Positions 6,420 to 61,994 of a stretch of DNA of 64,000 bases are shown here, piece after piece (within the stretch, counting starts at the first letter, position 1; every line of letters begins with the position of its first letter). Position numbers and translations under genes: made by a program. The notes beneath the pieces were generated by a model, which saw only the letters and a list, made by a program, of their open reading frames with translations, ran no database searches and was not told the origin of the DNA. Source of the DNA: Schmidtea polychroa (taxonomy: Eukaryota); the NCBI GenBank assembly GCA_044892525.1, contig CM097885.1, forward strand, positions 74,524,001 through 74,588,000, given 5' to 3'.

Positions 6420-7488
6420 TGTTAAGATCGAAAAAACGGGGACTACAGATCTTAACACAAATGACTCCAATAAGTTAACTAAATAAAAATAAATATAAAT
6501 AAGTTATATTTAATGTGGTTGCGCGTTTTAATATTTAAATCACTAAATAAAAAACAACTAACTAACTCCTTTCTATTTTTATAAAAATATATTTAATAAC
6601 TTATAACAGAAATTTACAAAATATGTTCAAAGAGTACAAGTAAACGGATTTATTAATCCTTACTGTTTACCAACAGCCTGCAAGAAATCGATGGCTCCTG
6701 TGTAGCACAACGATCGCTAAATAAACTAGAAAGATAGTGGAAAAAGCAAGAGGGTTGATTTTGGGGCTACCAGGTAACACGAAAGTCGCTATCTGTACTT
6801 TGTGTTCGCTTTATTTAATTCCCTTCCCAAGGATAATAATTTATCCTTACCCAACACAATTAATTAAATCTTTTACCTTGCCTGAATTTAACTGCTCCTT
6901 CTGTTGTCACTAATCTGTTTCAATTTCTCTTTCAAGTCTTCCTTTTTTCTCTGGTCAATTCTCGTCCGTAATTTATAGAAAAGTTTCTGCGATAATTAAT
7001 TCGTAATTTGAGCCGGACTTTCGCCTTGTGAGACTAAAATATTCAAATTTGATCCGAAACCTTGCGATTGTGGTCAAATTCTTGGAATTAATTTATCTCG
7101 GTGATTCTTTAATCACGTTTCTTCGATGGATCAATTAACTACTTTTCTGGTTATTATTCTCTCCAATCTATTCGTTAATTTAACTTTCAATCACAGTTTT
7201 TATCGTCCTCAAGATTATCGTCTCCAATTTTTCTCTCTCTCGTTTTGGTTTTGAAACGGTATTTATATTATTTTTTACTTATTTAATATATTAATAGTAC
7301 TTATATAATTACTATATATAGTAATAGTATTCACAAATATTCCTATATATTACCTAATTCTATTAATAGTAATTAAAAAGACTTATCTTTTATTTTCGGT
7401 AACACTTTATTATTTTTATTTATGGTATTACTAATTATAGTAATTTTTTATTTATTTTGTCACTAAGGCTCCAGGCCTATCCCTAACA
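6420..7488 (-). repeat. 3' LTR (1069 bp)
   Basis: Element-sense TGTTAGGGAT...ATCTTAACA. Near-identical to 60909-61973 (reverse complement) and to 20637-21232. Confidence 0.95.
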
Positions 7489-7490
7489 AG

Positions 7491-7502
7491 TCTTACCCCC
7501 TA
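7491..7502 (-). promoter_or_regulatory. Polypurine tract
   Basis: Minus strand reads AGGGGGTAAGA-CT immediately before the TG of the 3' LTR. Confidence 0.7.
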
Positions 7503-7734
7503 AAAGATTTTCGTCTCGAAAACAAGACCAACAAGACTAAAGAAAGGCTTTTGGTAAACAGCATTACACTAAAACTTAAAAAAAATTAATCAAATAAGAC
7601 AAAACACAAAATTAATGTTTCAGATAACAAATAATGAATGTCAAAACACTGAATTGCACAAAACACATAATAGTTAAGTCATTTTATACACATTTTGAAT
7701 TCGGCGACACATGTTGGGTGGCAACGTTCTTGGA

Positions 7735-9806
7735 TTAGATGTCCAGATCATCGGGATCTGGGTCTGGAACTTTGTACAGGTGCAACTCCTTCGTGCTGTA
7801 GCTATTTGCGACGACGTATTGCTGCAGCAACTTCTTTTTCCTCTTCTGTAGGACTTCTGGCTCAAAACTCACTACCAGAGGCTTGCCATCCAGAGCACTT
7901 GTTAAAATGACTGTAGACACTACGTACGGGATTCCGTCTACGTCATAAACATCATATTTTTGATTATTATTGACTGCCATTCTCGTGATTGGTTGGCAGT
8001 CATACTCCTTGGCTCTGGGTTTCCATTTGCTATCCGGACGTTTGTACCACATTGGTTCGAAACCGTCCACATCAACCGAAACCGGTTTCTTGATAATATT
8101 CTCCTTGGCAATCTTTAACATTTTCTGCCTAACCACAGGTTCAGATTTAACCTTTATTGCTTCCTGCATCTCCTTAACCGGAGGTTGAAAGGCAACTTCC
8201 ATAATGTCATCATCTGGTTCGCTGAATATCTTTTGAGGTTTAATAGTCCTAACTTCCGAACTGCTAGGTGTCTCTTTTGTCGTTCCTTCCGGGGTTTAAC
8301 AACTTTCTTCAACTTTAGCTTCGACTTGTCTCTTTTTATGGGTAACATTTTCTTTAACATCTTTTTCACCTTGCCTCCTTCTGGATTTTCTTTTCTGACC
8401 GCATTATCCAATTTATCCTTTGGCTGATAGGCAGCTCCTGATGGTTGTTTAGGTGATTTTGCTGTCTCTATTTCGCTAGCACATGTTTCATATTCATCTT
8501 CTTCTCCAATAGATATGGCTGGAGGCGGTGGTAGATCCACAGGTGATTTCCTCTTGGGCTGGGGTTGCTCTGATGTAGATGGTTGCTCAGGTAATCTCCT
8601 CTTCTGCGTCATTTCCTGTTCAACTATCGCTGCTGTAGTTGCGGAAATGAATTCCTCCTGAGGTATCGTGATATGGTCTAACCATTCGTTTCTGATATGT
8701 AAATAAACAGCACGTATTGCCAGTGCCTCATTGGTGACCACTAAATTCCTTGGTTCTCCGGGAACCGTACGCAGGAAAGTCTTTGTCAGGAATCCCAATC
8801 TGTAATGACCATGAATCTTTGGGACTCCTCTGGTTTCCAATAGTTTATTTGCAGAAAGATCACGAATACCCAATATTCGCTGCACTGGTAGATTGGCTAC
8901 CAAGATCAGATCTTTAAGTAAAATACCTACAAGTATTTTCTTATCACAGATCTTTCTTATCAAATGATAACAATCGTCTTCATCGAGATTTCCTCTCATG
9001 TCGGGTTCTTTTAACTTATATTGGTGCGTTTGGTAATGTTTTACTGGATCTCTGGGAGTCACTACCGCACTCAATAAATTATTTCCTCTCATATCCATAA
9101 TTGCGATTTGGATAATTGTCTCCTTCAATTCGATTCGGGATTTGGCAAAACCTGCCGATATGAAAATTGTAGCCTCGTCCTCCTCGGCTTTGGATAACTT
9201 CTTCCTCACAAATGATTTACACTGCCGTATATCGTCTTCATTTACATTATAAATCCAAGTTGGCTCGTTTTTGCTAACTATAGAGTATGGCTTCCTGAAG
9301 TCTAAGATTTCTATTGCGATTATGGTGTCCACCGCCGCTGCCTGGATCATAATATTCCGTTCTCGTCCATCAGCGTGGTATATCTCCAGAGTACACTGTT
9401 TTTCTAATTCAACAGGTAACTCTAATCCCGCCATAAACACCGTGAATGGCCTATTGATCGCATGAATCCACAAGTTTTCTATTTTCGGACATGAACCGTA
9501 CTCTCTACATAGTTCCGCCAATTTTAATCTACCTTGGTTATTTATAACCGTTACCATCATTTGCCTTCGAGGCCCTCCTGGAAATTTGAAGTCGTTTGGA
9601 ATATCCACTCTCCTGGGATAATACCAATAGTTTGAGGTGAGGTGATTCATTTTTGCTGCGACCGTGGTTCCGATGAACCGATATACATACTCTTCTTTAT
9701 AGGTGCTATACGCTTCAGTTTCAACTCGAGTTTGGGAATTGTACGTTGCCAATGGGTGTCGTCGATTTGCTTTGACTGGCGGCTTTGATTCTCTGTTATA
9801 ATTCAT
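7735..9806 (-). pseudogene. 3' accessory ORF with REX4/ISG20-like DEDDh-fold domain lacking ExoI acids; one frameshift and one stop (8296-8298)
   Basis: ORF 8154-9950 (likely true ATG at 9806) contains QIAIMDMRGN..VTPRDPV..YQT, KILVGI..DL, IRDL, RLGFLTKTFL, NEALAIRAVY, matching REX4/ISG20 spacing. The -1 frame from ~8370 joins it to ORF 7735-8202. A diverged paralogue lies at 49487-50930. Confidence 0.6.
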
Positions 9807-9810
9807 TTTT

Positions 9811-9830
9811 CTAAAAATAAAATAATTAAC
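9811..9830 (-). promoter_or_regulatory. Candidate splice acceptor for a subgenomic accessory mRNA
   Basis: Minus strand TTAATTATTTTATTTTTAG|AAAAATG, 4 nt before the ATG at 9806. Candidate donor CAG|GTAATA in the short leader at 20520/20519 (62090/62091 in the other arm). Confidence 0.45.
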
Positions 9831-10010
9831 AGCTTTTATCACTTTCGTGATAGACCCTCGCAGGGTAACCAAAGTCGACATACGCTGATGTCTGATTTTA
9901 CCAATGCTCATTTGAGCCCACATTAGTCTACATACTAATATAAATAACATATATATAAAATAAATAACTATATATATTTACACTTCCTAGTATATGGTGA
10001 GACTTTCCCC

Positions 10011-11048
10011 CTATACCTCGGTTTCGTAAATATTTTCCCAATAACGCATATCTCGTATATTTAATCTAAACATCCATAGGGTGGTTAAGAGCAAAATTAA
10101 AATCATGCAAATTACTCCCCCTATCATAATTAACAATAGCCATGTTGGCGTTTTCTCCCTCGCTGCCCCCTTTAACGTATTTTGACAACTACAATTATTA
10201 ATTATTTTAGTTATGCGGGGCTGTTTTACACTCGCTACCTTTCTAATACTAAACCAATCTAAAGCATTTATTCCTTTACAACCAGGAATATTCACTAATC
10301 TAGCCTTTCCTTCTTTGCTAGTTAGTTCTCCTCTTGTGGGAGGTATTAGATTTATTATTTCTTGATATATTGTATACCAACCGGTTCTCTCCGTAAATTC
10401 CAAATACGAAATGTTCGCCTTTGTCACGGTATCTGGTTTGATTTTCCATCTTCCACTTAGATACGCATGGTTGAGCACTAATCTCTCGACTCGCTGGTCG
10501 TCTTCTAATATGACGATTAACGCAATTTTATTATTCGTCCTCCAATCGTGAGTGGAAGATGTATCATTTCTGTTCCACCGTGGATGAGTAAATCTAACTA
10601 TCTGCCCGAGATATGAAATCTCTACTTTTTTGGTAAATTTTGCAGTCTTCAAAATCCATGCTGCTTTATCTACACAATCTCCTCCATCTGCAAAAACGTT
10701 TGGGTCTGCAAAGAATGTCTTGATTTCTAATAGATAACTTGTATTCGGCATAAGTCCCTCTATTACTTTCACTCGATCCCATGTATTCAAGTGAAATGAT
10801 ATCCCTCTTTCAGCAGCTACCAAATATAGATCATATCTATGCCATTGTATATTCGTTAAATGAAATCTGAATGCTCTATCTGTTCGTTGATATTCGATAT
10901 CTGGATGTTGACTGGCTTTAGGTGTGAATACCTCGAATGCCTGTCCAATCATCATGACACAGCTAATCACTGCTAAAAATGTAACTGTTTTCGGGATTTG
11001 TCGAGATCGTAAAGGGTATCGTTATGGTTGTCCCTTTAGGATACTTTT
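10011..11048 (-). CDS. C-terminal polyprotein extension: RYPLRSR, signal-like segment, FN3-like ectodomain, TM helix, short tail
   Basis: In frame with integrase (78 nt = 26 codons between 11048 and the GTG at 10970; stops at 11049-51 and 11022-24). TVTFLAVISCVMMIGQA signal-like; KVIEGLMPNTSYLLEIK FN3-like; WLLLIMIGGVICMILILLLTTLWMF TM. Confidence 0.7.
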
Positions 11049-14000
11049 TTATGATTCTAACGTTTTCTTTTTCGATTTCTTATCTATTTCGAATTCATCA
11101 ATTTCTGATTTTGGTTTCTCCTTTTCTGGTGGGGCTATCTTTTTACATCTGTTTGCATGAACCATTATCGGTTCTGCTTTTCTGTTTGCCACTAACTGTA
11201 AGACTAAATTGGTTTCTGTGACTTTCAAAATTTGATACGGCCCTTTGTAATTTCTCATTAATTTAGGAGATAAACCTTTTTTGTTGTAATGTCCTTCTAA
11301 CATGACATAATCTCCTACCAAAAACCCATGATCTTTCGCTTTACGATCATGATATTCCTTCATTGTTTCTTGGTTATAACGAATGTTCAAACCAGCTTTC
11401 TTCCAGGCTTCTTGCATTCTTTCTCTCATCTCGAATAAGTAGTTTCCCTCATCACAGTTCTGTGATGCTTTTGGATAAAATATAAGATCCACTGGCATCT
11501 TGCTATGCCTTAAATACATCAGATAGAAAGGTGTTTCTCCTGTTACTGAATGAACAGCATTTCTATACGCAAACAAACATGATGGTATGTGTACATCCCA
11601 GTCCGTCTGACCTGAGTTTACGTATGATGATAACATGTTTGCCAAGGTTCCATTGAACCTCTCTACCAATCCATCCGTCTGTGGGTGGTATGGTGAGGTA
11701 TTTAATTTTAAAATACCAAAATAATCATTAATACTTTTTAACAAATTCCTCATGAAATCCTTTCCTCTGTCTGTAAGCAATTTTGCCGGAACACCATATC
11801 TAAATACAATTTGTTCTACAAAAATTCTGGCAATTGTGTCTGCCTTATGGTTCGGAATCGGGAATGCTTCGGGCCACTTCGTTAAGTAGTCGCAAAATAC
11901 TATGATAAATTTATTTCCCATCTTCGATTCTTTAAACGGTCCTAGTACGTCCATAGCTGTCATCTCCATTGGCGAGGACGGTACTGGCATTGGTTTTAAT
12001 GGAACATGTGGTTTCCTGCCTGTGTTCCTTCTAGTTATACATATTTTACACGACTGACACCACTTTTGAACATCATCTTTTATATCGGGCCAAAAGTATT
12101 TCATTTTCAATCTTGACAGTGTATGTCTAGCTGAGAGGTGTCCTCCCAGTGCTCCATCGTGGTATTGTAATAATAGTGATTCTCTGTATTTCTTTGGCAC
12201 TAATATTACATTATCTCTTGATTCCACATATTTGATTAGACCTTCTTCCAATATGAATTTATCTTTATGTTTCTCCCAATACTTCTGAAATTCATTTGGT
12301 ATGGCCTTTGCTTCTATAGCTTGTCTGATCATATTAATTTCGTCATCATTTTTCTGTGCTTCTACTAAATCGCTCAAAGTGTTAGCCTCTCTTGTTAGCA
12401 TGAAGATTGTTCCTTCTAATCTTCCTTCCTTTATATCTTCTAACTCAGGCTCTTGCTCCATTCGTGATAATGCATCTGCATTACCATTAGCTTTGCCTTT
12501 ACGATATACAATTTCAATTTTATATGGCTGTAATCTCAATGCCCATCTTACTAACTTTGATGCTTCGTCTCTATGTTTTAACAGCCATTGCAATGGTCTA
12601 TGATCTGTATAGAAAATTACCTTTCTGCCCCATAGGTAATGACTAAATTTTTCCACTGCAAATACTAATGCTAATGCTTACAATTCTATTACAGCATAAC
12701 TTTTCTCGTGTGGCTTCAATCCACGACTTGCATATGCTACTGCGTACTCATCGCCAATTTCGTCTTTCTGTCCCAAAACTGCACCTATACCTCTTGTGCA
12801 TGCATCGGTCATCACCATGAATTGTCTTTTAAAATCTGGGAATCGTAAAATTGGTGGTTTGCATAGTGCATCTTTTAACTTGTCAAATGCCTGTTGCTGA
12901 TCCTCTCCCCATAAAAATTTTATACCTTTATTTTCTAAGGTAGTTAGAGGAAAAGCAATTGCTGAAAAGTTTCGTATAAATTTCCGGTAATATCCCGTCA
13001 ACCCTAAAAATCCTTTGATTTGTTTCACATTCACTGGTTGTGGGAAATTCTTCACTTTATCCGTGTTTGCCGGATCTGGTCTTACACAATCGTGTGATAT
13101 TACATGCCCTACGTAAATCACTTCCGATTCTGCCCATTTGCATTTGCTTGGCTTTACTTTCAGGTTAGCCATAATCAGTCTTTTGAAAATGTCCTCCAGA
13201 TGTTCCAAATGTTTATCCAAATCTTCCGAGAAGATGATAATATCGTCGATATATACCATTGCGTGATGTGCGTCCATCAACATGATATTCATTGCCCTCT
13301 GAAACGTTGGAGGAGCTCCTTTTAATCCGAACGGCATTACCAAGTATTCAAAATGATCACTACTTGTAGAAAATCCTGTCATAGGAATTGAGTCTTTGCT
13401 CATCTTTATTTGATAAAAACCTTTCTGTGCATCCATCACAGTAAACAACTTTGAATTTTTCATTTTATCATAAATGTAATCTAGCAAAGGTAGCGGGTAA
13501 TTATCACTAACTGTTTGTTCATTTAATTTCCTATAGTCATTGCATAATCTAACTGAGCCGTCTCTTTTAGCTACAACCACCAAAGGTGAGGAATATGGAG
13601 ATTTACTGGGTCTGATTATATTATATTTTTGCATTAATTTAATTTGTTTATCAACGGACCCTTGTATACTTTGAGGTATTCTGTACGGGCGTATTTTTAT
13701 CGGTTTATTTTCTGTTAATTTAATTTCATGCTCTAAAATATTAACTTGCCCTAAGTCATACTCGTGTTTTGCGAAAACTTGGTCATATTTACGTAACAAT
13801 TGGTTAACTCTGATGTTTTCCTTTCTATATAAGGTTTTACTATCGCAGCTCGGTGCGTCGTAATATTCGATATCAGGATCTCGTTCATCCTCTTCTACTG
13901 ATAATATCGATTCAGACTCTTTCTGCATGTTAGATAGTTGTATCACTTTACCCACTCTAGTCTCTGGGTATAATCTCAATGATTTGCTTGCTAGATTCGT

Positions 14001-14560
14001 TAATCTAATCGGGATTCTTCCTCCCCGTACTGTTGCCAAGTTTTGCACCATAGGTGTTTTATACCTATTTACGAACTGCTCACTTGGTTCGAAAATAACA
14101 TCTCCTTCCACCTCTTGGTGTGTTGCTACAAAACAAACTGTTTCGGTCCTCGGTGGTATTGTCACCGTTCTATCCAAAAACACTACATCCACACTGTAGG
14201 TTTTTCGTTTTCTACCCGTCATTTTCATTAATTCGCCTGTTGCACAATCGAATACAATATCTTTTAACTTTTTCAATATATCCATTCCCACGATACATTC
14301 TGCCATACATTGTCTAGTGACTTTGATATCGTGTCTAAATTTTTGATCACACAACCTTAATTCACAATCTAATGTTCCGATAACATTGATAGGTTGTCCA
14401 TTTGCTCCTGATGCAACAGTTAATGTCGGCACTATTGCTTGTAATTCTTTTTCGTTTAATAAATTTGCTTCGATCAAAGTCAAATCTGATCCTGAATCAA
14501 TAATGGCATGTACCGTATGCCTGTTAACTTTTAATTTAATCGTAGGTTTATGAGTCTTTT
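11049..14560 (-). pseudogene. pol: pol: aspartic protease, reverse transcriptase, RNase H, integrase (one in-frame TAA at 12678-12680)
   Basis: AIIDSGS (PR); YIDD (RT); VMTDAC and IEL*ALAL (RH; stop at the conserved Glu); H-x7-H..CQSCKIC, MDVLGP, TDRG, GLVERFN (IN). Confidence 0.95.
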
Positions 14561-15129
14561 TACCCATATTGACCATTAATATTGTTGAGATTCCTCTAAT
14601 ATTATCTCTGAACTTTTGTTGATCATCACTATCTTTGTCATTTTCTGATTTTATTTCATCTTTATACTCTTCCTTTAGCCGTTCCAACGTGCTGAATGGA
14701 TATTTTGGTACCATCTCTAATACTGATGTACCCAAGGGTGGCATTGTCTCGAACTTCATTTTATACGTTGGGTATGAGGTAGATGGTAATATATCTGTAT
14801 TTGTTCTAAACTCGAACCTCTTTAACATTTCCTCTTCAACTCGTTCTGGTATTATCTTTTTTCCACCCTCGTATGGTGACAAATAATTCACAGGCCACTC
14901 CTGCCGTTTCCTTCTTTTTGCTTTAACAGGGTACTGTTGTAAAGTACTATTTTCAAAATTTTTAAATTTCGGTTTTTTGTTGTCTGGTTTTATTGAGGTG
15001 TTGTCTGAGGTCTCATAGCCCTCTAGGTTACCTCCCTCGTCAGAATTGTCATCGTCTCGATGACTAGGTTCATACATTATTAACTCATGTTTCTTTATAG
15101 TTTGTCTCTTCATTCTCTTAATCTCTTTA

Positions 15130-16990
15130 TTATGATGATGAAATACTGCAAAATCTGCACAAACTGGACACATTCCTAATAGCAACTTCCAAGACCATCC
15201 CCCGATCTTGAAGATACTATAGGTGGAAAATAATTGCGATATAATTATTTTCAATATCATCACTATTGCATATATACCTGAACATCCTGCTACAAAAATG
15301 CCAAAGCTTGTAAATCTACCCCAGATTTTCCGTATTACGTTTGATGCAGCTTGTTTGTAATGTTCTGGTCCAAATAATAGATTATAGTCCGGTTTTCCAT
15401 CATATGATTGATAGATTCTTGTTATTATCTCTGTCACTCCCCGATCTCTGATTTGGGGAAATACAATTGCTCTCCGAGCTTCTTCAATATCTTCCGGAGT
15501 ATATACTCCGCCCTTTGACATTTCGTTTAATGGTTGAAACTCCATTTTAGTTTCTAACTTTGTAGCTTGAAGCACTTCAACTGGTTTTGAAGGCGGCTTT
15601 CTGTTTGGCAATGAAATCCAAATATTGTTTATTTTGTATAATGGTGACATTGCTGGATTGCAAATTGCTGTTAATGGTGAGGTATCCTCCTTCAATAATT
15701 GGTGTGATACTGGCATCAGGAATCTCAATTTTCCTTTATATTTCACAGGTAGCTCCAATGTACATCGATCATATTTGGTGATTTCTACCTCTATTGCTTT
15801 GCATTGATAGCTATAAATTGCTTCACCCAAAATTCTACCAAATGTTCCTTCCTCTGTCAACATTGGCATTATTAAATCCGGATTAGCTATAGATATTGCT
15901 AATCTATTTCGTATTATTTCCCGATTCAAACGTCAGTCGTTCAGGATCACTTCCTGATACACATCTAATAATTGTTTCTGCAGATCATGATACAAGAAAT
16001 CAATCTTATTATTGATATACTTGGCTATTTTAATATCTGATAGATGCAATGATTCTGCTGCCGGAACATACTTGTATGCTAAGTATATTCCCTTGTAGTT
16101 GGTTTCAAATATTGGTACACCACATTTTGTTGTCTGTTTTTTTCTGACTAAGCGAATTGCATCTGTGGGATCCTTTGAGACTAATACTACTGCTGTGCTT
16201 TTCTCTGGTACCACTTCCTTTTTCGTTTTGTGAGCTATCTTGTCTCCCCAACCACTTTGTTGTGAATCCTGAGACGTAAAACTTTTCCCATCTAGCCTTG
16301 AAAATACTACCTTTTTCAGGTATCCTAAATCACAAAAATCTCTCATTGATTGGTACGTTAATACTGCTAAACTGGTTTTACAATAACCATATTTCACGTT
16401 GCATTCTGGATGAGACATCATTTTTCCCGTGGATACTTCGAAAGTTCCTTCGTACTCTATCAGCTCTACTGTGTAGTCCTCAACTGTTACCACATAGTTT
16501 ACTACATTAGAACCTCTAACTTTCTTTCTACCATGACAGGAACCATCATCTGCTATCGGTCCTCCCCGGGTAATAGTTATACCCAACTTTTTCCCTTCTT
16601 CTGCGGTAATTGTCACCTCATGATCTATTTTAACTGTTTTTGACCGAAAAGCATTTACACAATCCTCTGGTGGGATGATTAACGGTATCGGAATGAGTTT
16701 AGCTCCTAAAAATGCTGAATAACTATTCGATCCACAGTAATATTCGAACGTCGCTCTCTGTATTCGACATTCCCTCACTCTGGTTCTGTAAAACTCTGTT
16801 TGCTGATAAACATGATATTCCACGTATTCCCTTTTTGCAACTTTATCTGGATATGCTTCCTTGCATTCCACTGTGTCTACTAATGAGTAGATTCGCGATA
16901 ATATTGGTTCACTGCAATCATATGCCGTTAGGGAATTTGTCTGTCGCAATATTCCCATCATTACCAACAACATCATCATCCAACTAGTAA
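15130..16990 (-). CDS. env-like class III (chuvirus/herpes gB-like) fusion glycoprotein embedded upstream of PR; one in-frame TGA at 15933-15935
   Basis: Hydrophobic signal WMMMLLVMMGIL, then LTAYDC, many Cys, CGVPIFETNYKGIY, YINNKIDFLY, CTLELPV, GGVYTPEDI, TM FTSFGIFVAGCSGIYAIVMILKIII and GWSWKLL. ILND*RLNREII is in frame. About 620 aa. Confidence 0.75.
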
Positions 16991-17069
16991 ATCCACCTGT
17001 TCCCCGTGGACTACTTGAAATATTTTCTGTCAACAATTCTTCATTTAATTCATATTTTCCTTTCGTTTC

Positions 17070-17456
17070 TTTTATATCCCAAAACTTATGTTCAGTCATC
17101 CATGTTCTGAAATTCACTTCGATGATATCAGTCAGCTTGTCTATGGCTGCTGGAATTTTCGACGAATCATCTTTAATTATGCTCAATGCATTTTTAAACA
17201 TTAAGGCTAGAATCGTTATCATTTTCCCTTTCGTCAGGCCTTCGTCTATGAATTGCCCTGCTATTTCGAACATCTCCTGCTCCGTGGTGCTTCCTGGAAT
17301 CTTTTCCATAGCTTTCTTGACTTTTTCTGCAATTTTGTCAACATTAACACTTTTATCTTTCTTAATTTGCCAATCAGGCTTGATCAATCGTAAGATTTGA
17401 CTTAGTATTTTCCATGTTTCCGTTTTATCACTAGCGTCTCCAACGCTTTTATCAAT
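17070..17456 (-). CDS. Bcl-2-like helical domain within the polyprotein
   Basis: BH1-like MFEIAGQFIDEGLTKGKMITILALM (cf. F.EVA.ELF.DG.NWGRIVAL) and BH2-like FRTWMTEHKFWD (cf. W.....GGWD), with plausible spacing. Confidence 0.55.
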
Positions 17457-18929
17457 TTAGCTAGCTATCCCTGCTAGAGCCTGCTTAGTTACATTTTGGA
17501 TTGTAACTGGTTTTAAAAGTTCTCTTGGGGGCGGGTTCATTTGACTTTTCCTCGGTCTACCCCTTCTCTCTCTTTTCTTTTTATTCTCGACTAACTTCGG
17601 GCTCACTCTTTCTCTTGGTGGCTCGACTTGTCGCGATGTACTAGCTCCGATGTTTGTTTCATCTTGATTTAATTGTACTTCAATATCTTCCTCTGTAGGA
17701 AATATTTCGACCAACTCGTCTTCCGTGTTATCAAGTTCCTTGAGATATTTGTCTATCTCTTCATCTAAATCTACTGTAGTTACGGGTTCCTGATGAGTAT
17801 TCCCGTCTACTTGTTTTTGCTCAGGATGTACTGTTTCATCCTCCATTTCAGCATTATCTGGCAATCTCAAAGTTGCCCATTGATCCTCTGGAAACTCTAC
17901 CAATAATATTAATACAACTGTTTCCTCATTGGGAAAGCATCCAACATCTACTAGAAATTCGTCGTCATCCACCTGACAACCATGTATCATTATTAGGAAT
18001 GATTCTTTTACTATTTCTGATATTCTTTTTCTCAGTTTCTTTACTCTATGATAACATGAGAATTGTTGTATCAGGTGTCCTCTCCTGGGTATCCTGATAT
18101 CTAACATCACTGGACCTTGTCTACCTTCCAAATGTCTAATAGCATGTCCATTTTTAATCAACAGCATCTTTGCTTGAGTCTGAAATTGTGATGTCTCTTT
18201 TACTAAAGGCACCACCAATGGCATTATCTCTCTAAGAGTATCTACTGGGATTCGCAACTCCAGTATCCAATCCATTATCATCTTAATGGCTTCCCCATCT
18301 CTTGTGTTTTTCATCAGTTCGATTCCCAATCTATGTGGTACGGCTGATATTTGATTTAATTGATCAATTTCAATCTCGCTTATAGTAAGGACATTATCCA
18401 AATCCACTACTGTAACAGTTTCCTTGTGAAACTTTGCTTTTATAACCATATTTTTCCCTGGTAGTATACCACAATCTAACAAGGTTTCTCCCTCTAATAA
18501 TCTTTCTCCCAATAAATATAGTTTGCATCTCTGTTGAGGTTTTACCACAGAAACTCTCTTTGCCAATGCTTCTACCTTTTCACTTGGGTTAATCGTATAT
18601 CTACGAAAACAACCCTTTGGGAAAGATACAAAAATTGTAGAATCCTCCAGATTCTCTCTTTGTTTCCAATTTAGGCCAATATTTCTCAGAATTTCTCTCA
18701 ATTCTGTATAATATTCCTCATTTCTGTCTAACTCTGATATGATATCTATTACTTTGTCAACCTCATTCTCATTAACGGGGTTTAAACGAATATTTTCTAA
18801 TTTCTGTCTCATTTCTCTTTGCCATACGCTCTTGCGTAATAGTATTTTTCTACAGTCATCGATGGGATTTCTTTCCTCTTTCGATGCTTCTCGAACCTTT
18901 ATTGGTTCACTACCCCACTCACCTCGCAT
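17457..18929 (-). CDS. Polyprotein segment with two ubiquitin-like domains (~18429-18641 and ~17892-18110), acidic linker and AT-hook (17547-17567)
   Basis: TIFVSFPKG..YTINPSEKVEALAKRV..QQRCKLYLLGERLLEGETLLDCGI aligns with ubiquitin; MLDIRIPRRG..VKKLRKRI..HGCQVDDDEFLVDVG..TVVLIL is a second UBL; RRGRPRK AT-hook. The TAA at 17457-59 is followed by an open in-frame reading into the next ORF. Confidence 0.7.
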   Translation of the reverse strand: MRGEWGSEPIKVREASKEERNPIDDCRKILLRKSVWQREMRQKLENIRLNPVNENEVDKVIDIISELDRNEEYYTELREILRNIGLNWKQRENLEDSTIFVSFPKGCFRRYTINPSEKVEALAKRVSVVKPQQRCKLYLLGERLLEGETLLDCGILPGKNMVIKAKFHKETVTVVDLDNVLTISEIEIDQLNQISAVPHRLGIELMKNTRDGEAIKMIMDWILELRIPVDTLREIMPLVVPLVKETSQFQTQAKMLLIKNGHAIRHLEGRQGPVMLDIRIPRRGHLIQQFSCYHRVKKLRKRISEIVKESFLIMIHGCQVDDDEFLVDVGCFPNEETVVLILLVEFPEDQWATLRLPDNAEMEDETVHPEQKQVDGNTHQEPVTTVDLDEEIDKYLKELDNTEDELVEIFPTEEDIEVQLNQDETNIGASTSRQVEPPRERVSPKLVENKKKRERRGRPRKSQMNPPPRELLKPVTIQNVTKQALAGIAS

Positions 18930-18940
18930 GGATGATGTGG

Positions 18941-19525
18941 CTATAAGAACTTCCGGCTCACTGACCGAAGCCCATTTTTTTCCAATACTTCTGTTGGAAC
19001 AATTTCATTAGCTACTGGATCCATGTCCATAGCCTTACGATTTTTAACTGGTGAAACCGGTAAACCTTCTATTTCTCTGTCGGCTTCTGGCTCCATGACC
19101 ATAGCCACTAGATTTTTCCTGGGTGAAACCTGTAAACCCTCACAGACCTCTGGTTCTATGACTATAGCCTTTTCCTCTTTGTCCTCCCATGGACTCTCTT
19201 GAAGCATCAACACTTCAAGTTCTACATAATTATTTTTATTTCGCCTTTTTCTGGCTGACGTCATATAAACACCTTCATTTTCATCGTACTCATCCGTTTC
19301 ATTTGTTGTTAGCCTCGCTAACCTGTTTCTCTCTTCTTGAATTTCTAATTCAAGCTGCTGCAAATAAGTTAATTTGTGATCTGAATTCACGGCAAACGTT
19401 GTCTGCTTCGATCGATTATTATTAGCATTGTCACTACCATTGTTATTAGATAACTGATTCTGTGGACAAGAACGCATAATATGACCAAATTTCCCACACT
19501 TATGACATTTAATTTCCCCCCCCCC
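18941..19525 (-). CDS. Gag continuation in the -1 frame: fourth CCHC knuckle, coiled coil, EPEV-type repeats
   Basis: After the G10 run the -1 frame reads EIKCHKCGKFGHIMRSC (C-x2-C-x4-H-x4-C) directly into ORF 18941-19477. Confidence 0.75.
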   Translation of the reverse strand, partial: GGGEIKCHKCGKFGHIMRSCPQNQLSNNNGSDNANNNRSKQTTFAVNSDHKLTYLQQLELEIQEERNRLARLTTNETDEYDENEGVYMTSARKRRNKNNYVELEVLMLQESPWEDKEEKAIVIEPEVCEGLQVSPRKNLVAMVMEPEADREIEGLPVSPVKNRKAMDMDPVANEIVPTEVLEKNGLRSVSRKFL

Positions 19526-20499
19526 GAATTTACTTCATCCCTTTTAATATTATTATTAAAATTACTATTTCTACTCTGAAAGTTATTATTATTATTATTA
19601 TTACCACGAAAATTCCTATCGGGGCTTCTATTTCTATTATTATTATTATTTGAATTATTTCCCCCAAAACTAGCTTTACAAACTGACGCTACATGTCCCT
19701 TGCGCTTGCATTTCTCACAATTTAGGTCCGAAATTCTACAGTTTGATGCCACATGATTATTTCTCCCACACTTGGTACACAATTTGTCCCCTGGAGAATT
19801 ATTCCTACTTTTACAATCTTTTGACATATGTCCCTTTTTATGACAATTAAAACACTCAATGTCTGACTTGTTGCTACTAATAGCAAAATTATTTGATTTC
19901 TCAATGCTACTTTCAATTAAACACGCTTTGCGAGTTAATTCCTCTAAATTATCTCCTATGTGTAAACTGAGTGCATTTCTCATTGCTGACGATAACCCTG
20001 ACCAAAACTGATCTTTCACTAATGCTCTAGTTGCATCATTCCAGGCTGCCCTATTACCAAATGCTCTCTCTGCCAACATCATTATTTGATATGAAAATTC
20101 CCCAACAATCTCACCCGAATTTTGTCGCCTGTTATAAAACTGTTGTCTCAGCACTCTAGTTGCATCCCCCGGTAATATTCTGTTTTGTAACGCTAATCGT
20201 AATACATTCCATTCAACTGGATGCTCGGCTATTATAACATCGTTATATATTTCCCGCGCCATCCCTTTTAAATATAAAGGTAATCTCAAAATCATTACCG
20301 GTTCCGGGAATCCTAATGCTCTGGCTAACTGAAAATATTCGGACATAAATTCTGGAAACTCCCCTGGGTTTCCACTAAATGGTTTAATCGGAATTGTTGG
20401 GTATCTCATAAAATCTACCGCTGGTGGTTGAGCTACTGGCACATTATTATTTTGTAAATTATTCTCATTTAGATTTTGTAAATTATTTATCTCTGCCAT
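19387..20499 (-). CDS. gag: Gag (capsid plus three CCHC zinc knuckles)
   Basis: PFSG..LPLYLKGMAREIY retrotransposon-gag motifs; CFNCHKKGHMSKDC, CTKCGRNNHVASNC, CEKCKRKGHVASVC. Confidence 0.92.
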   Translation of the reverse strand: MAEINNLQNLNENNLQNNNVPVAQPPAVDFMRYPTIPIKPFSGNPGEFPEFMSEYFQLARALGFPEPVMILRLPLYLKGMAREIYNDVIIAEHPVEWNVLRLALQNRILPGDATRVLRQQFYNRRQNSGEIVGEFSYQIMMLAERAFGNRAAWNDATRALVKDQFWSGLSSAMRNALSLHIGDNLEELTRKACLIESSIEKSNNFAISSNKSDIECFNCHKKGHMSKDCKSRNNSPGDKLCTKCGRNNHVASNCRISDLNCEKCKRKGHVASVCKASFGGNNSNNNNNRNRSPDRNFRGNNNNNNNFQSRNSNFNNNIKRDEVNSGGGKLNVISVGNLVILCVLVHRISYLITMVVTMLIIIDRSRQRLP

Positions 20500-20615
20500 T
20501 ATTTGCTGGTTTCTATTACCTGGTCTTAAATTTATTACCCTTCTATTTCTTAACTCAATGATTCAAAAAGATGTTTGCCTTTTATAAATAAAATTCTTAT
20601 TCCCCTTAAATTGCT

Positions 20616-20633
20616 ATCACGTCGGGCTCACCA
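20616..20633 (-). promoter_or_regulatory. Primer binding site, tRNA-Trp
   Basis: TGGTGAGCCCGACGTGAT, 3 nt after the LTR end; one mismatch to the tRNA-Trp PBS TGGTGACCCCGACGTGAT. Confidence 0.85.
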
Positions 20634-20636
20634 AAA

Positions 20637-21232
20637 TGTTAAGATCGAAAAAACGAGGACTACAGATCTTAACACAAATGACTCCAATAAGTTAACTAAA
20701 TAAAAATAAATATAAATAAGTTATATTTAATGTGGTTGCGCGTTTTAATATTTAAATCACTAAATAAAAAACAACTAACTACTTTCTATTTTTATAAAAA
20801 TATATTTAATAACTTATAACAGAAATTTACAAAATATGTTCAAAGAGTACAAGTAAACGGATTTATTAATCCTTACTGTTTACCAACAGCCTGCAAGAAA
20901 TCGATGGCTCCTGTGTAGCACAACGATCGCTAAATAAACTAGAAAGATAGTGGAAAAAGCAAGAGGGTTGATTTTGGGGCTACCAGGTAACACGAAAGTC
21001 GCTATCTGTACTTTGTGTTCGCTTTATTTAATTCCCTTCCCAAGGATAATAATTTATCCTTACCCAACACAATTAATTAAATCTTTTACCTTGCCTGAAT
21101 TTAACTGCTCCTTCTGTTGTCACTAATCTGTTTCAATTTCTCTTTCAAGTCTTCCTTTTTTCTCTGGTCAATTCTCGTCCGTAATTTATAGAAAAGTTTC
21201 TGCGATAATTAATTCGTAATTTGAGCCGGAAT
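20637..21232 (-). repeat. 5' LTR, truncated (first ~470 bp missing)
   Basis: Identical in diagnostic positions to 61378-61973; identity stops at ...TTGAGCCGGAAT (21232). Confidence 0.92.
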
Positions 21233-25774: not shown

Positions 25775-26099
25775 TTCATAATTTAAAAAATATAATTTAT
25801 TAGTTGTCATTAAAGATATTGTTATAAATAAGGATGAAAAATATTTTTAAACCTTATATTTTACACAGGTAAATTATACCCTGATTGTTGTCAAAGGACA
25901 GATCATGGGCCTGGTTGTCACGATACTATGGATAATTATTATAGTAAAACTTACTATAATAAAAAATATTACATATGTCCAATATGCATGACTCTAAACG
26001 TAAACGAATATATTGATTTTTATAATCAACATAAAAATCATTTATCCTATTTTAAAAGTAATAAAAAAGAAATTTTTCAACATTAATAAAAACATTTAA

Positions 26100-29000
26100 T
26101 GAAATAGTTAAAACCGATAAAAAAATTATAACAAATTCTGAGGAAACTGAAATTATTGCACCAGAACCTATAGTAATTACTGAGGTTATAATAATTTCTG
26201 ATGACGATGAAAATGTACAAGAAGAAGAAGATGGAGCTGAAGATCACGAGGAAGACCGTAGAGAAGATAGGCCAGAAGATGGAGCTGAAGATGGCGGAGA
26301 AGACCGTAGAGAAGATCGCGAGGAAGATCGTGGAGAAGATCGTGAGGAAGATCGTGGAGAAGATGGAGCTAAAGATGGTGCTGAAGATGGGCCAGAAGAT
26401 GGTGGAGAAGGCCTTGGAGAAGATGGTGAAAATTTACCAGTGATCGAATATGATTTGAATCGATCGCATAGAGTAATAAAATTAAACATTGAAAGATATA
26501 ACATGAATACCATTGAATTACCAGTTCCTATTTTACTTGCATTGAGAAATGCTTTAAACGAACTCGGTCGGTCACGCAAAAATCCAATTTGGGGTTAATG
26601 TGGAATTTATTAAAGATGGAGGCACAAAAACTGCGTGGATTTCAAATAAAGCAACAGAATATTCAGAAACATTCCTTGAGCAAGGTATTAAAAAATTATA
26701 CGAAAAAATAAATGTTCAAACTGTTGAGGGAAGCAGTTGGACTGTGAACAAAGTGTTAGAAATAATTTTCACTGACACAAAATATCATCCAATAAGTAGG
26801 CTAAGCGGACATAGCTACTTGAAGACACCAGTGACTTTAGCTAATAAACATGCTATAGTTAATATTAAAAATACGGATAATTTATGCTTTCTTTATGGCA
26901 TACTTTGTATTAAAAATTTGGATGTAATTCGAACAAATAGGCAACGAGTTGAGAATTATGCAGATTATATGGATCAATTGATGTATGACGAGGAAGATTT
27001 TCCTATGCAGTTATCTAACATAAGGAAATTCGAGCGAATTAATCCAGGACTGGCAATCAATGTTTTCAGTTACACTTGCACAAATGTTTTGAACATCGAT
27101 GAAAATGATGAGGAAACCGTTTTTAAACATCCGAATTTGGATATAATACATCGGACTAAAGTAGAGGGCGTAGCACCGATCTATTTGCTAATGTTGGAAG
27201 AAGGTGAAAAGTTTCACTATACTGCTGTTACTAATCTGCAGCGGTTAATGAATTGTCATGAGAGCGAAGATTGCCCAGTTCGGATTCAGTGCAAATGGTG
27301 CGAAACATATCTGAATGGCTTTAGAAAAGATATGGCTTTTGAAAAACACAAAGCAATTTGCAGCAAAAATATTCTCGGTACTACAATGTACACGATGCCT
27401 CAAAATAAAGATTTGGTATTTAGTGATTGGTCCGAAACAGTCACTCCACCATATGTTATTTACGCTGATTTCGAGGCGATCTTACCCGATGATGAAAGAC
27501 ATCATCAAATTCATTTACCAATAGCAGTGGGGCTGTTGTTGATAAATAATTTCACTGGGGTAAGTGAATACCATCAATTTATTGGGCCGGAATGTATTGT
27601 GGAGTTTTTGGCAAAAAATCGAACAACTGGGGCAGCAAGTAGTTTTGCAATACTATTATAGAAATGCAAGGAAAACAATGACAATGTCAGCAGCAGAACG
27701 GATCGCATATAATAGGGTGCGAGTGTGTTATCTGTGCAATAAAAGAAAATATTTAGTCAGAGATCATGACCATTTTACGGACGAATATTTGGGCGCAGCA
27801 TGCAATGACTGCAATTTATCAAGACAAATAAGATATTTATTACCGGTAGTATTTCATAATCTAAAAGGATATGACTTACACCATATTTTGAAATACGGAC
27901 TCAATGAATTTACACATTAGTCCTTAAATTGTATTCCAACAACAACGGAAAAATTTTTATCATTGATGGTGAGAATAAAAAACTTAACCGTGCGTTTCAT
28001 TGAAAGTTTGCAATTTGTCAATGATTCGTTGGCAAAAGCGGTTAAGTCATTGAGTGGATTACCGCTAACTCGTTCAGTATTTGGTGGAACATTGGTAGAA
28101 ACAAAAGGGATTTTCCCTTATAATCATGCGAAAAGCTTAGAAATTTTGGAAAACACAACAGAATTGCCACCGATTTGGGAAAAAGTAACACAAGAAGAAT
28201 ATCAGAAAGCACTGGAAATTTGGGAAGAAATCGGTTGTCAAAATTTACTGGATTACATGAAAATATATTTGAAGCTGGACGTGTATTTACTGGCCGACGT
28301 ATTCCAGCAGTTTCGAGCAAGATCAATAGCGCAAAATAAATTGGAGCCACTAAATTTCTTTGGTATTCCCGGAATGAGTTGGGCATCGGCACTCATGACG
28401 CTAAGGGAACCCATCGAGCTTTTAGTCGACATCGAAATGTACAATTTTTTCGATGGAGGTATACGTGATGGTCTCACATTTGTGAATAAACACTATGCAG
28501 TGTCGTCAGAAAACACTGAGTTGTTGTATATCGACATCAACAACTTATACGGCTGGGCATTGAGTCAAAAATTGCCATGTAAAAATTTTAAATGGATACT
28601 GGAGGAATCGGATTTGGAATCGATTTTGGAACAATGTGTGAATCAAGATTTAGAAACATTGGATTATGGCTATACCATGGAGGTGGACATGGAAATTCCA
28701 GATGATTTACACGACAAATTCGATGATTTCCCAATCGGTGCAGAGAAGATGAAAGTGAATAAGGTCGAAAAGTTAATGCTAACACATTTACCAAAAACAA
28801 ACTATGTTTTACATTGGCGACTCCTGAAAATGTACATGTCATTGGGTGTACAAGTGGAGAAGATACACCGGGCAATAAAATATGAGCAAAAATGTATCTT
28901 TAAGAACTATATAGATACGAATACACAATTGCGGGCAAATTCAACAAATGCTCTGGATAAAAACTACTACAAGTTATTGAACAATAGCTTGTATGGCAAA

Positions 29001-29766
29001 ACAGTAGAAAATTTAAAGAAGCGGTTGAATCTGAGGCTGTGCAACAAACAATCAAAAATGGAAACTTATGCCTCAGCCCACATTTAGGAGGTCGATCAAA
29101 ATAGCAGATGATCTGATAGCAGCAATATTGAATATGGAAACTGTATGTTTAGATAGGCCAAGTTACATTGGGCAAAGTGTACTTGACTTATCCAAACATA
29201 GAATGTATGAATTGCACTATGTAGAACTGGAGAAGTATAGAAAACAATTCAAATGCAGTGTAGATATTTTAGCCGGGGACACGGATAGTTTTTTCCTGGA
29301 ATGTAAGAATGTGAAGTTGAGAACACAATTACTTCCAGCCATGATTGCCGATAATTTATTGGATACAAGCAATTATGATCCGACAGACCCTTTGTACAAT
29401 CAAAACTTGGATTCAGTTATAGGGAAATTCAAGGATGAAAATAAAGGTAAAAAATATAAAGAAATGATATTTCTAAGACCCAAGTGCTATAGCCTCTTGA
29501 ATGAAGATAATGATACAACAAATAAGGAAAAAGGGGTAAATTTAGAGGATAGTATTATAAATCATCAATCATATGTAGTTTGTTATAATGGTATGGTAAT
29601 ACCGCCAATTCCTCAAAGTAATATAAGCACTAGAAATCATCAGCTTTTCACTATAAAAAATAATAAGGTTGCATTAACAAATACTGATGATAAAAGGGTC
29701 TGGGTTGCTATAAATAAAAGTCATGCATATGGGCATTATGCAGTAAATTGGCGGGCTCCTATTTAA
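26100..29766 (+). pseudogene. polB: Polinton/Maverick-type protein-primed DNA polymerase B with endonuclease VII-like insert; 3 frameshifts and 1 stop
   Basis: YADFE (ExoI), VFHNLKGYD (ExoII), YLKLDV (ExoIII), DINNLY, KLLNNSLYGK, GDTDS, RPKCY; CYLC..VRDHDH..G..CNDCN insert. Shifts at A-runs ~26580 and ~27615 and at ~29075; TAG at 27918-20. Acidic EDR/EDG repeat at 26200-26430. Confidence 0.92.
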
Positions 29767-35334: not shown

Positions 35335-38300
35335 TTAAATAGGAGCCCGCCAATTTACTGCATAATGCCCATATGCATGACTTTTATTTATAGCAACCCA
35401 GACCCTTTTATCATCAGTATTTGTTAATGCAACCTTATTATTTTTTATAGTGAAAAGCTGATGATTTCTAGTGCTTATATTACTTTGAGGAATTGGCGGT
35501 ATTACCATACCATTATAACAAACTACATATGATTGATGATTTATAATACTATCCTCTAAATTTACCCCTTTTTCCTTATTTGTTGTATCATTATCTTCAT
35601 TCAAGAGGCTATAGCACTTGGGTCTTAGAAATATCATTTCTTTATATTTTTTACCTTTATTTTCATCCTTGAATTTCCCTATAACTGAATCCAAGTTTTG
35701 ATTGTACAAAGGGTCTGTCGGATCATAATTGCTTGTATCCAATAAATTATCGGCAATCATGGCTGGAAGTAATTGTGTTCTCAACTTCACATTCTTACAT
35801 TCCAGGAAAAAACTATCCGTGTCCCCGGCTAAAATATCTACACTGCATTTGAATTGTTTTCTATACTTCTCCAGTTCTACATAGTGCAATTCATACATTC
35901 TATGTTTGGATAAGTCAAGTACACTTTGCCCAATGTAACTTGGCCTATCTAAACATACAGTTTCCATATTCAATATTGCTGCTATCAGATCATCTGCTAT
36001 TTTGATCGACCTCCTAAATGTGGGCTGAGGCATAAGTTTCCATTTTTGATTGTTTGTTGCACAGCCTCAGATTCAACCGCTTCTTTAAATTTTCTACTGT
36101 TTTGCCATACAAGCTATTGTTCAATAACTTGTAGTAGTTTTTATCCAGAGCATTTGTTGAATTTGCCCGCAATTGTGTATTCGTATCTATATAGTTCTTA
36201 AAGATACATTTTTGCTCATATTTTATTGCCCGGTGTATCTTCTCCACTTGTACACCCAATGACATGTACATTTTCAGGAGTCGCCAATGTAAAACATAGT
36301 TTGTTTTTGGTAAATGTGTTAGCATTAACTTTTCGACCTTATTCACTTTCATCTTCTCTGCACCGATTGGGAAATCATCGAATTTGTCGTGTAAATCATC
36401 TGGAATTTCCATGTCCACCTCCATGGTATAGCCATAATCCAATGTTTCTAAATCTTGATTCACACATTGTTCCAAAATCGATTCCAAATCCGATTCCTCC
36501 AGTATCCATTTAAAATTTTTACATGGCAATTTTTGACTCAATGCCCAGCCGTATAAGTTGTTGATGTCGATATACAACAACTCAGTGTTTTCTGACGACA
36601 CTGCATAGTGTTTATTCACAAATGTGAGACCATCACGTATACCTCCATCGAAAAAATTGTACATTTCGATGTCGACTAAAAGCTCGATGGGTTCCCTTAG
36701 CGTCATGAGTGCCGATGCCCAACTCATTCCGGGAATACCAAAGAAATTTAGTGGCTCCAATTTATTTTGCGCTATTGATCTTGCTCGAAACTGCTGGAAT
36801 ACGTCGGCCAGTAAATACACGTCCAGCTTCAAATATATTTTCATGTAATCCAGTAAATTTTGACAACCGATTTCTTCCCAAATTTCCAGTGCTTTCTGAT
36901 ATTCTTCTTGTGTTACTTTTTCCCAAATCGGTGGCAATTCTGTTGTGTTTTCCAAAATTTCTAAGCTTTTCGCATGATTATAAGGGAAAATCCCTTTTGT
37001 TTCTACCAATGTTCCACCAAATACTGAACGAGTTAGCGGTAATCCACTCAATGACTTAACCGCTTTTGCCAACGAATCATTGACAAATTGCAAACTTTCA
37101 ATGAAACGCACGGTTAAGTTTTTTATTCTCACCATCAATGATAAAATTTTTTCCGTTGTTGTTGGAATACAATTTAAGGACTAATGTGTAAATTCATTGA
37201 GTCCGTATTTCAAAATATGGTGTAAGTCATATCCTTTTAGATTATGAAATACTACCGGTAATAAATATCTTATTTGTCTTGATAAATTGCAGTCATTGCA
37301 TGCTGCGCCCAAATATTCGTCCGTAAAATGGTCATGATCTCTGACTAAATATTTTCTTTTATTGCACAGATAACACACTCGCACCCTATTATATGCGATC
37401 CGTTCTGCTGCTGACATTGTCATTGTTTTCCTTGCATTTCTATAATAGTATTGCAAAACTACTTGCTGCCCCAGTTGTTCGATTTTTTGCCAAAAACTCC
37501 ACAATACATTCCGGCCCAATAAATTGATGGTATTCACTTACCCCAGTGAAATTATTTATCAACAACAGCCCCACTGCTATTGGTAAATGAATTTGATGAT
37601 GTCTTTCATCATCGGGTAAGATCGCCTCGAAATCAGCGTAAATAACATATGGTGGAGTGACTGTTTCGGACCAATCACTAAATACCAAATCTTTATTTTG
37701 AGGCATCGTGTACATTGTAGTACCGAGAATATTTTTGCTGCAAATTGCTTTGTGTTTTTCAAAAGCCATATCTTTTCTAAAGCCATTCAGATATGTTTCG
37801 CACCATTTGCACTGAATCCGAACTGGGCAATCTTCGCTCTCATGACAATTCATTAACCGCTGCAGATTAGTAACAGCAGTATAGTGAAACTTTTCACCTT
37901 CTTCCAACATTAGCAAATAGATCGGTGCTACGCCCTCTACTTTAGTCCGATGTATTATATCCAAATTCGGATGTTTAAAAACGGTTTCCTCATCATTTTC
38001 ATCGATGTTCAAAACATTTGTGCAAGTGTAACTGAAAACATTGATTGCCAGTCCTGGATTAATTCGCTCGAATTTCCTTATGTTAGATAACTGCATAGGA
38101 AAATCTTCCTCGTCATACATCAATTGATCCATATAATCTGCATAATTCTCAACTCGTTGCCTATTTGTTCGAATTACATCCAAATTTTTAATACAAAGTA
38201 TGCCATAAAGAAAGCATAAATTATCCGTATTTTTAATATTAACTATAGCATGTTTATTAGCTAAAGTCACTGGTGTCTTCAAGTAGCTATGTCCGCTTAG

Positions 38301-39001: not shown

Positions 39002-39475
39002 TTAAATGTTTTTATTAATGTTGAAAAATTTCTTTTTTATTACTTTTAAAATAGGATAAATGATTTTTATGTTGATTATAAAAATCAATATATTCGTTTA
39101 CGTTTAGAGTCATGCATATTGGACATATGTAATATTTTTTATTATAGTAAGTTTTACTATAATAATTATCCATAGTATCGTGACAACCAGGCCCATGATC
39201 TGTCCTTTGACAACAATCAGGGTATAATTTACCTGTGTAAAATATAAGGTTTAAAAATATTTTTCATCCTTATTTATAACAATATCTTTAATGACAACTA
39301 ATAAATTATATTTTTTAAATTATGAAATAAAATTATTTAAGTTGATAACTATTATGAAATTTATTTTCAAAAATAATAAAATGTAAATTTTTCCAAATAA
39401 AATAATTTAAAAAAAAATCGATAATTATTTTGAATTATTTATTTTATAAAAAGTAATAAAATATAAATTACTTGA

Positions 39476-61973: not shown

Positions 61974-61976
61974 TTT

Positions 61977-61994
61977 TGGTGAGCCCGACGTGAT
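61977..61994 (+). promoter_or_regulatory. Primer binding site, tRNA-Trp
   Basis: TGGTGAGCCCGACGTGAT. Confidence 0.85.

Follow-up and report, generated by a model that had tools for sequence, protein, structure and literature searches.

The analysed window is a 64,000-nucleotide stretch of the Schmidtea polychroa contig CM097885.1 (positions 74,524,001 to 74,588,000). It holds an LTR element at positions 6420 to 21230 on the minus strand; a complete copy of this element measures 15.3 kb. The following features were assigned to it, listed in the reading direction of the element.

20637..21230, minus strand: 5′ LTR, shortened (598 aligned columns of the 1,070-bp LTR), 99.2% identical to the 3′ LTR
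20616..20633, minus strand: primer-binding site for tRNA-Trp, complementary over all 18 bases to the 3′ terminus of a host tRNA-Trp gene with CCA added
19387..20499, minus strand: Gag, with a capsid-like region and CCHC zinc knuckles (PF00098, E 9e-10), a frameshift near 19520; continuous with the polyprotein in unbroken copies
17862..18866, minus strand: two helical plus ubiquitin-like units (PF00240 at E 0.011, below the cut-off, and 6.8e-5 in a sister family; dN/dS 0.13 and 0.22)
17061..17423, minus strand: Bcl-2-like domain, directly before the Env signal (PF00452, E 0.05; dN/dS 0.13; Atlas features 0.91)
16932..16994, minus strand: internal signal-peptide-like segment of Env (hydropathy peak at the same position in four of four families; cleavage putative)
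15318..16931, minus strand: Env ectodomain, class III of the gB/chuvirus G type (PF24664; AlphaFold, Foldseek, VIA; dN/dS 0.04)
15147..15317, minus strand: Env membrane-proximal region, transmembrane helix and amphipathic tail (Kyte-Doolittle 19-residue peak of 2.27)
14247..14561, minus strand: aspartic protease (PF00077, E 2e-7; PF13975, E 7e-7)
13887..14246, minus strand: beta-type insert between protease and reverse transcriptase, likened by position only to the dUTPase-like domain of Burro (no Pfam match; dN/dS 0.08)
12456..13694, minus strand: reverse transcriptase and RNase H, with a stop at 12678-12680 (PF00078, E 4e-31; PF17919; PF17917)
11127..12224, minus strand: integrase with H2C2 finger, core and SH3-like end (PF17921, E 7e-19; PF00665, E 7e-8)
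10011..11000, minus strand: second membrane protein, with a signal-like segment, an ectodomain of about 260 aa with four sequons, a transmembrane helix and a short tail (hydropathy; dN/dS 0.21)
7735..9806, minus strand: ORF2, about 690 aa, ISG20-like DEDDh exonuclease fold (profile and alignment), with a frameshift near 8300
6420..7489, minus strand: 3′ LTR, 1,070 bp, TG...CA, preceded by a purine-rich tract

The preliminary description had assigned the element to Ty3/gypsy, and this assignment held. Gag is of the CCHC type, and the pol domains follow in the order PR-RT-RH-IN; in Pfam they match gypsy-type families and none of the BEL/Pao ones, so that a BEL/Pao identity was rejected. The ends are also of the expected kind (TG...CA LTRs, a tRNA primer-binding site, a polypurine tract and a short target-site duplication), and sister copies have TG...CA ends and 4-bp target-site duplications. 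The copy in the window is broken. Its ORF1 contains five premature stops (17457-59, 15933-15935, 12678-80, 11049-51 and 11022-24) and two frameshifts upstream of env, near 19520 and near 18975, while ORF2 contains one frameshift, near 8300; this copy therefore cannot make Env from the Gag start. To describe the family, the own genome was searched at the DNA level; 40 of 294 candidates were scored (88-100% identity), and 21 of those 40, the window copy and 20 others, were examined. A single stop-to-stop frame of 3,513-3,516 aa was found in 9 of the 21, so that intact multi-copy ORFs are a property of the family and not of the window copy. Of 18 stretches examined one by one, 14 had an LTR pair, with 99.0-100% identity, and four had none; the family is therefore young. 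A sequencing run guessed to be RNA covered all 30 bins, but as contigs with no usable splice joint, and constitutes evidence neither way.

Several arrangements around this and other copies were observed. An inverted duplicate of the window element occupies positions 60908-64000 and continues beyond; it is 99.95% identical over 15,125 bases, shares the 3′ flank and the same breaks, and has a full 5′ LTR. It goes back to a segmental duplication or to a duplication in the assembly rather than to a second transposition. Where the 5′ LTR is cut, a palindrome of about 22 kb (window 21230-43896) starts; it carries broken ORFs in each arm (26065-29766 and 35335-39036), which resemble a family-B DNA polymerase and are possibly Polinton-derived. 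ORF fragments at 44915-49126 resemble hAT-type and other DNA transposases. A fragment at 49550-50553 is homologous to ORF2 of the element but comes from another family (32-37% identity). Elsewhere in the genome, three copies of the element share LTRs in a head-to-tail array with a period of 14,218 bases (contig C2, 100.87-100.91 Mb). Genes for tRNA-Trp, the primer tRNA of this family, form a tandem array with a 284-bp period on contig C4 from 55.02 Mb, for which a pattern count suggests hundreds of units.

The Env coding region extends from 16994 to 15147 on the minus strand and comprises the signal segment, an ectodomain with 14 cysteines and the membrane anchor. All features listed in the preliminary description were present on this strand: the signal, the cysteine-rich ectodomain, the transmembrane segment, the in-frame run into the protease, the premature TGA at 15933-15935 within the ectodomain, and the four motifs AYDC (16925-16914), CTLELPV (15764-15744), GGVYTPEDI (15512-15486) and GWSWKLL (15200-15180). 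Downstream of the TGA, the frame stays open into protease and reverse transcriptase. The signal of this family scored under 1.5 in a 19-residue hydropathy window. The 14 ectodomain cysteines, present in unbroken copies, were kept in four of four families, and 11 cysteines were nearly invariant across 113 homologues. Neither an N-glycosylation sequon nor a furin-like site was found in the ectodomain.

Homology of Env to chuvirus glycoproteins was evident from sequence profiles. Pfam family PF24664 (Monjiviricetes_fusion) matched the two halves of Env with E values of 1.3e-26 and 9e-45; because these scores of 93 and 153 bits stand against a curated cut-off of 27, the reading frame is far beyond chance, and a chance ORF was ruled out as an explanation. 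A profile search with Env retrieved 1,959 proteins with E values up to 0.001, among them the G protein of Tacheng tick virus 4 (E 5.9e-56). A word-indexed homologue search returned two proteins, one of which seems to be a chimeric gene model that joins env to an ion channel. Searching the PDB with the Env profile gave nothing relevant by sequence, and the link to herpesvirus gB comes from the fold search only. For the fold, an unchanged natural copy was modeled by AlphaFold (593 of 600 residues identical to the window Env; 112 homologues in the alignment), which resulted in a model with a pLDDT of 89. The model displays the class III post-fusion fold with a fusion module, a PH domain, a long central helix (48 residues) and a crown. 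As judged by eye from secondary structure and sequence, one hairpin tip of domain I is aromatic/hydrophobic and the other polar. Foldseek against the PDB placed herpesvirus gB on top (E 7e-15, TM-score about 0.4), and the top 13 rows in VIA were all class III fusogens, with a best Z of 10.0 over 394 residues and an rmsd of 8.2. In BFVD, the top matches were chu-like virus glycoproteins (E 2e-35, TM-scores up to 0.72). The preliminary description had read the motifs as those of a gB-related class III fusogen of the chuvirus type, and both the fold and the chuviral homology were thus found. Judged by this model and these profiles, Env is a class III, gB-related fusogen homologous to chuvirus glycoproteins, with predicted fusion activity.

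Env is part of a polyprotein. In unbroken sister copies, one frame runs from Gag past integrase into the second membrane protein, in the order Gag, two helical plus ubiquitin-like units, Bcl-2-like domain, signal, Env, anchor, protease, insert, reverse transcriptase, RNase H, integrase, second signal, ectodomain and second anchor. The proposed location of env between gag and pol is thereby borne out. Three other families in the genome (B, C and D), found via PF24664 and PF00452, have the same layout as the window family (A). Frames of 3,053-3,361 aa were observed in families B and D, and the two C copies examined were broken but collinear. The four hydrophobic segments occur in the same order (signal, anchor, signal, anchor) in all four families, with topology read from hydropathy. 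The Bcl-2-like domain scored under the Pfam cut-off in every family (PF00452, E 6e-6 to 0.012 in the three sister families), while a five-sequence profile matched Bfl-1/A1 (E 6e-5) and Bcl-2 (E 2e-4) in the PDB; its BH1/BH2 motifs are degenerate in the window family. Multi-copy Bcl-2-like matches were also seen elsewhere in the genome, in elements that are apparently Polinton/Maverick and carry them as cargo; neighboring ORFs in these elements are presumably TBP-like and packaging-ATPase-like. Among related database polyproteins, P0004, P0005, P0007 and P0015 each contain two or more aspartic protease domains, and no Bcl-2-like match was found before Env in P0004, P0005 and P0007. P0009, likewise of the Gag-Env-Pol type and with a membrane protein at its end, is assigned in the database to a Flavobacteriaceae MAG and probably represents mis-binned animal DNA.

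Downstream of the polyprotein, ORF2 was present in families A, C and D; since it was not found in the two family-B copies examined, it is not universal. A three-family profile matched ISG20L2 (E 1e-11) and ISG20 (E 5e-8), and the catalytic residues look degenerate in the alignment of the window family. A T-rich tract and AG lie directly before the ORF2 ATG. An acceptor-like motif of this kind occurs in three families as well as in the second subfamily, and ORF2 is likely translated from a spliced RNA.

The second membrane protein lies in frame with integrase in unbroken copies; in the window copy, two of the stops (11049-51 and 11022-24) fall between them. The same place and topology were found in four of four families and in three of three database polyproteins that extend past integrase. 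Its sequence is far less conserved: no similarity was detectable between the terminal proteins of family A and families B/C (hhalign probability 0.3%). No homologue was found among public proteins of near or greater length, the PDB gave no match, and Pfam gave a weak transmembrane match only. A likeness to fn3 was indicated by Atlas (0.91, at low recognition, with 147 shared features, which is weak), with no fn3 match in Pfam or the PDB. The structural model reached a pLDDT of 39 and had no Foldseek match under 0.001; a row for the fn3-containing CD45 (E 0.1) was discarded, as a model of this pLDDT is unusable. A search of the own genome with this protein listed 148 matches, of which many are satellite fragments and 11 lie in frames of the 3,513-3,516-aa type. 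The satellite-like arrays (contig C3, 106.49-106.52 and 107.05-107.23 Mb) have a period of about 2.87-2.88 kb and dozens of units, and contain a fragment of the terminal-protein gene.

Selection was estimated as Nei-Gojobori dN/dS between two subfamilies, with one copy each. The ratio was 0.04 (0.03-0.06) for the Env ectodomain, compared to 0.04 for protease, 0.02 for integrase and 0.00-0.04 for the enzymes, whereas the terminal ectodomain reached 0.21 (0.13-0.30) and the Bcl-2-like domain 0.13. Likewise, the terminal protein was 64% identical between the subfamilies and Env 93%. Synonymous divergence was uneven: within the polyprotein, dS ranged between 0.1 and 1.4, from about 0.1 for gag through 0.2-0.3 for RT-RH to 0.6-1.4 over most of the remainder, and in ORF2 it was saturated. 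This unevenness points to recombination between subfamilies; the two compared copies are therefore mosaics, and the dN/dS ratios are rough. Read with this in mind, the ratios indicate that Env is under strong purifying selection and held as tightly as the enzymes.

Elements of this kind are already known: gypsy elements of flatworms with a gB-type env between gag and pol entered the literature in 2019, and a survey of them followed in 2026. In the available text of Chary and Hayashi 2026 (PMC13524379), Gag-Env-Pol gypsy elements with an HSV/gB-type Env are described from Platyhelminthes as Smed_errantivirus_1-6. They share with the window family the Ty3/gypsy pol, the env between gag and pol, the gB-type fold, the multi-copy state and a similar size. 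The closest, Smed_errantivirus_4, matched domain I-II of the window Env at 164 of 252 residues by hand count (about 65%, ungapped, same cysteines), and the Platyhelminthes C1a cysteine pattern lies at the same positions by eye. The sister families in the genome resemble Smed_1, 2 and 3 by eye, family B being nearly identical to Smed_errantivirus_2. At 65%, the window family is distinct by sequence from all six Smed_errantivirus elements and represents a new family in the published group. The main text of PMC13524379 makes no mention of a polyprotein, Bcl, exonuclease or fibronectin, and lists no primer-binding site for the Smed elements; compared to these elements as described, the window family adds a tRNA-Trp primer-binding site, a single ORF, the terminal membrane protein and ORF2.

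The planarian element Burro (GYPSM1) has the order of ubiquitin-like, BCL2-like, in-frame env and protease parts in common with the window family. As described in the available text of Arkhipova and Yushenova 2019 (PMC6431247, citing Jurka 2007 and Grohme 2018), it has an in-frame env between BCL2 and protease in one polyprotein of Gag, ubiquitin-like, BCL2-like, env, protease, insert and reverse transcriptase. Its env matches mononegavirus glycoproteins of arthropods and fish and is likened there to gypsy/F-type env. Burro exceeds 30 kb and encodes 4,873 aa, compared to 15.3 kb and 3,516 aa for the window family, and Pfam matches to its cargo domains MATH, BIR and ankyrin were absent from the nine ORFs scanned of the window element; the element is thus not Burro itself. 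The available text on Burro makes no mention of a post-integrase membrane protein. More generally, the literature searched, including the text of PMC13524379, contained no description of such a protein; Grohme 2018, Repbase or figures may show it. A further parallel concerns ORF2. In the available text of Rodriguez 2017 (PMC5408684), bdelloid rotifer LTR elements have a DEDDy exonuclease ORF3, which is likewise a DEDD-fold accessory ORF after pol, but it is RNase D/DEDDy-like, whereas ORF2 is ISG20/DEDDh-like and looks catalytically degenerate.

Among viral proteins, the glycoproteins of Jingchuvirales/Monjiviricetes (PF24664; Tacheng tick virus 4 G) share protein family, cysteine pattern and fold with Env but are only about 20% identical to it, and they are stand-alone ORFs with an N-terminal signal, while Env lies within the polyprotein of a gypsy element. 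The post-fusion fold is shared with herpesvirus gB and other class III proteins (rhabdovirus G, thogotovirus GP and baculovirus GP64); their identity to Env is 10-13%, and Env is without a furin site. An endogenous chuvirus (Jingchuvirales EVE) was rejected as an identity, the gene lying inside an LTR-element polyprotein, grouping with other polyprotein Envs and having no stand-alone G context.

Captures of chuvirus glycoproteins have been reported for mosquito BEL/Pao elements (Dezordi 2020, PMC7642597, as far as the available text goes), and the preliminary description had proposed an independent capture by this element, in an unusual upstream position. The homology of Env to chuvirus G is real; however, we consider it very improbable that this element or its immediate lineage took env independently from a chuvirus and put it in a new position. 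In a FastTree phylogeny of 121 Env rows (41 short or partial rows left out), the Envs of the four own families and of 13 database polyprotein-type proteins, most of them with Env followed by protease, formed one side of a branch with support of 100, apart from the stand-alone glycoproteins. This grouping of 17 Envs contradicts a capture at the level of the family and speaks against one private to it. Because the tree is unrooted and its rows were chosen by a profile of these Envs, it cannot give donor or direction; as a flatworm-type clade lies among the chuvirus-like stand-alone glycoproteins in this unrooted tree, one ancient capture from such a virus by the ancestor of the clade may have occurred. 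Env is about 17-24% identical to stand-alone glycoproteins compared to 35-42% to the sister families, and Env and reverse transcriptase diverge in step between families (44 and 35% versus 48 and 43%). The upstream position is not new either, since the Gag-Env-Pol layout stands in the available texts of both PMC13524379, where it covers three phyla, and PMC6431247. Because these two report such env placement and type, the premise that errantivirus env is solely baculovirus F-like is out of date.

A functional model can be built on the computed results, namely the single frame that starts in Gag and spans the whole polyprotein, its four hydrophobic segments, the gB-type fold of Env and the purifying selection; from these we infer the steps after translation. 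Most probably, the locus is the envelope gene, broken here, of a young multi-copy Gag-Env-Pol Ty3/gypsy element, encoding a predicted gB-type class III fusogen that would be cut from a 3,500-residue polyprotein at the ER membrane. The first internal signal would send Env into the ER lumen, where signal peptidase would free its N-terminus. Gag-Ubl-Bcl-2 could stay tied to the membrane through the Env signal segment, by analogy with hepatitis C virus core, which is described as held to the membrane by the E1 signal (PMC5402940, available text). The Env anchor would bring the chain back to the cytosol, where the protease of the element would release PR, RT-RH and IN, and the second signal and anchor would put the terminal protein into the same membrane. 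Since signals and anchors would place Env and the terminal protein there, with Gag tethered, capsids would assemble on membranes with both of them in place and form enveloped particles by budding. Trimers of Env would then fuse membranes, the faster-evolving terminal protein would most likely bind the target cell, and the Bcl-2-like domain would likely delay the death of the producing cell. Being encoded in a single frame, Gag, Env and Pol would be made in equal amounts, unless splicing supplies extra Gag. Equal amounts of the three are unusual for enveloped retroelements.

A different role for Env was also considered. Through the in-frame fusion, each Gag comes with a single Env and is tethered to the membrane, the ectodomain is without furin site or sequon, and errantivirus transmission is, according to the available text of PMC13524379, unknown outside Drosophila. 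Env could accordingly be kept for a cell-bound job (ER anchoring or assembly, direct passage into neighboring stem cells, or blocking of related elements) with no extracellular infection. We regard this as unlikely, as a whole ectodomain with 14 cysteines and a post-fusion fold, kept in all four families at a dN/dS of 0.04, is more than a mere anchor needs. A second alternative leaves Env as proposed and assigns the terminal protein another function: it could be a host-facing accessory, such as a receptor decoy or an immune modulator, captured separately by each family. The lack of sequence similarity between the terminal proteins of families A and B/C and their absence from public proteins and the PDB are consistent with separate captures; the element also bears other host-modulating cargo (Bcl-2-like, Ubl and ISG20-like), and fn3 domains are typical of receptors. 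We consider this possible without favoring it, because the constant place and topology in the four families and in the three database polyproteins rather fit one old, fast-evolving gene made one-to-one with Env. Under the preferred reading of a fusogen released from the polyprotein at the ER membrane, the terminal protein is, by its sequence features, a candidate attachment partner of Env. Its constant place and topology, its four sequons and its evolution faster than that of Env fit this role.

What is added here to the published group is the anatomy around Env, chiefly the terminal membrane protein and the topology of the single polyprotein. The available text of PMC13524379 points out that HSV requires gD, gH and gL in addition to gB in order to enter cells, and that it is unexplained how gB-bearing errantiviruses do so. 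The terminal protein, made in a 1:1 ratio with Env, occupies a constant position in all families examined and evolves about fivefold faster, which makes it a concrete candidate partner for the gB-type Env. RNAi and proteomics can be applied to the host, and the family includes young copies without breaks, so that its expression, its processing and the content of its particles are open to direct observation. We tentatively propose, as a conjecture rather than our expectation, that planarian Gag-Env-Pol elements may be enveloped reverse-transcribing viruses built like a flavivirus: the polyprotein would thread the ER membrane four times, Gag would be tethered via the Bcl-2-like domain and the Env signal, and the entry machine would have two parts, a gB-type fusogen and, encoded after integrase, an attachment protein that is fn3-like and evolves fast. 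If this is true, the terminal protein would supply the partner whose absence had been noted for gB-only errantiviruses.
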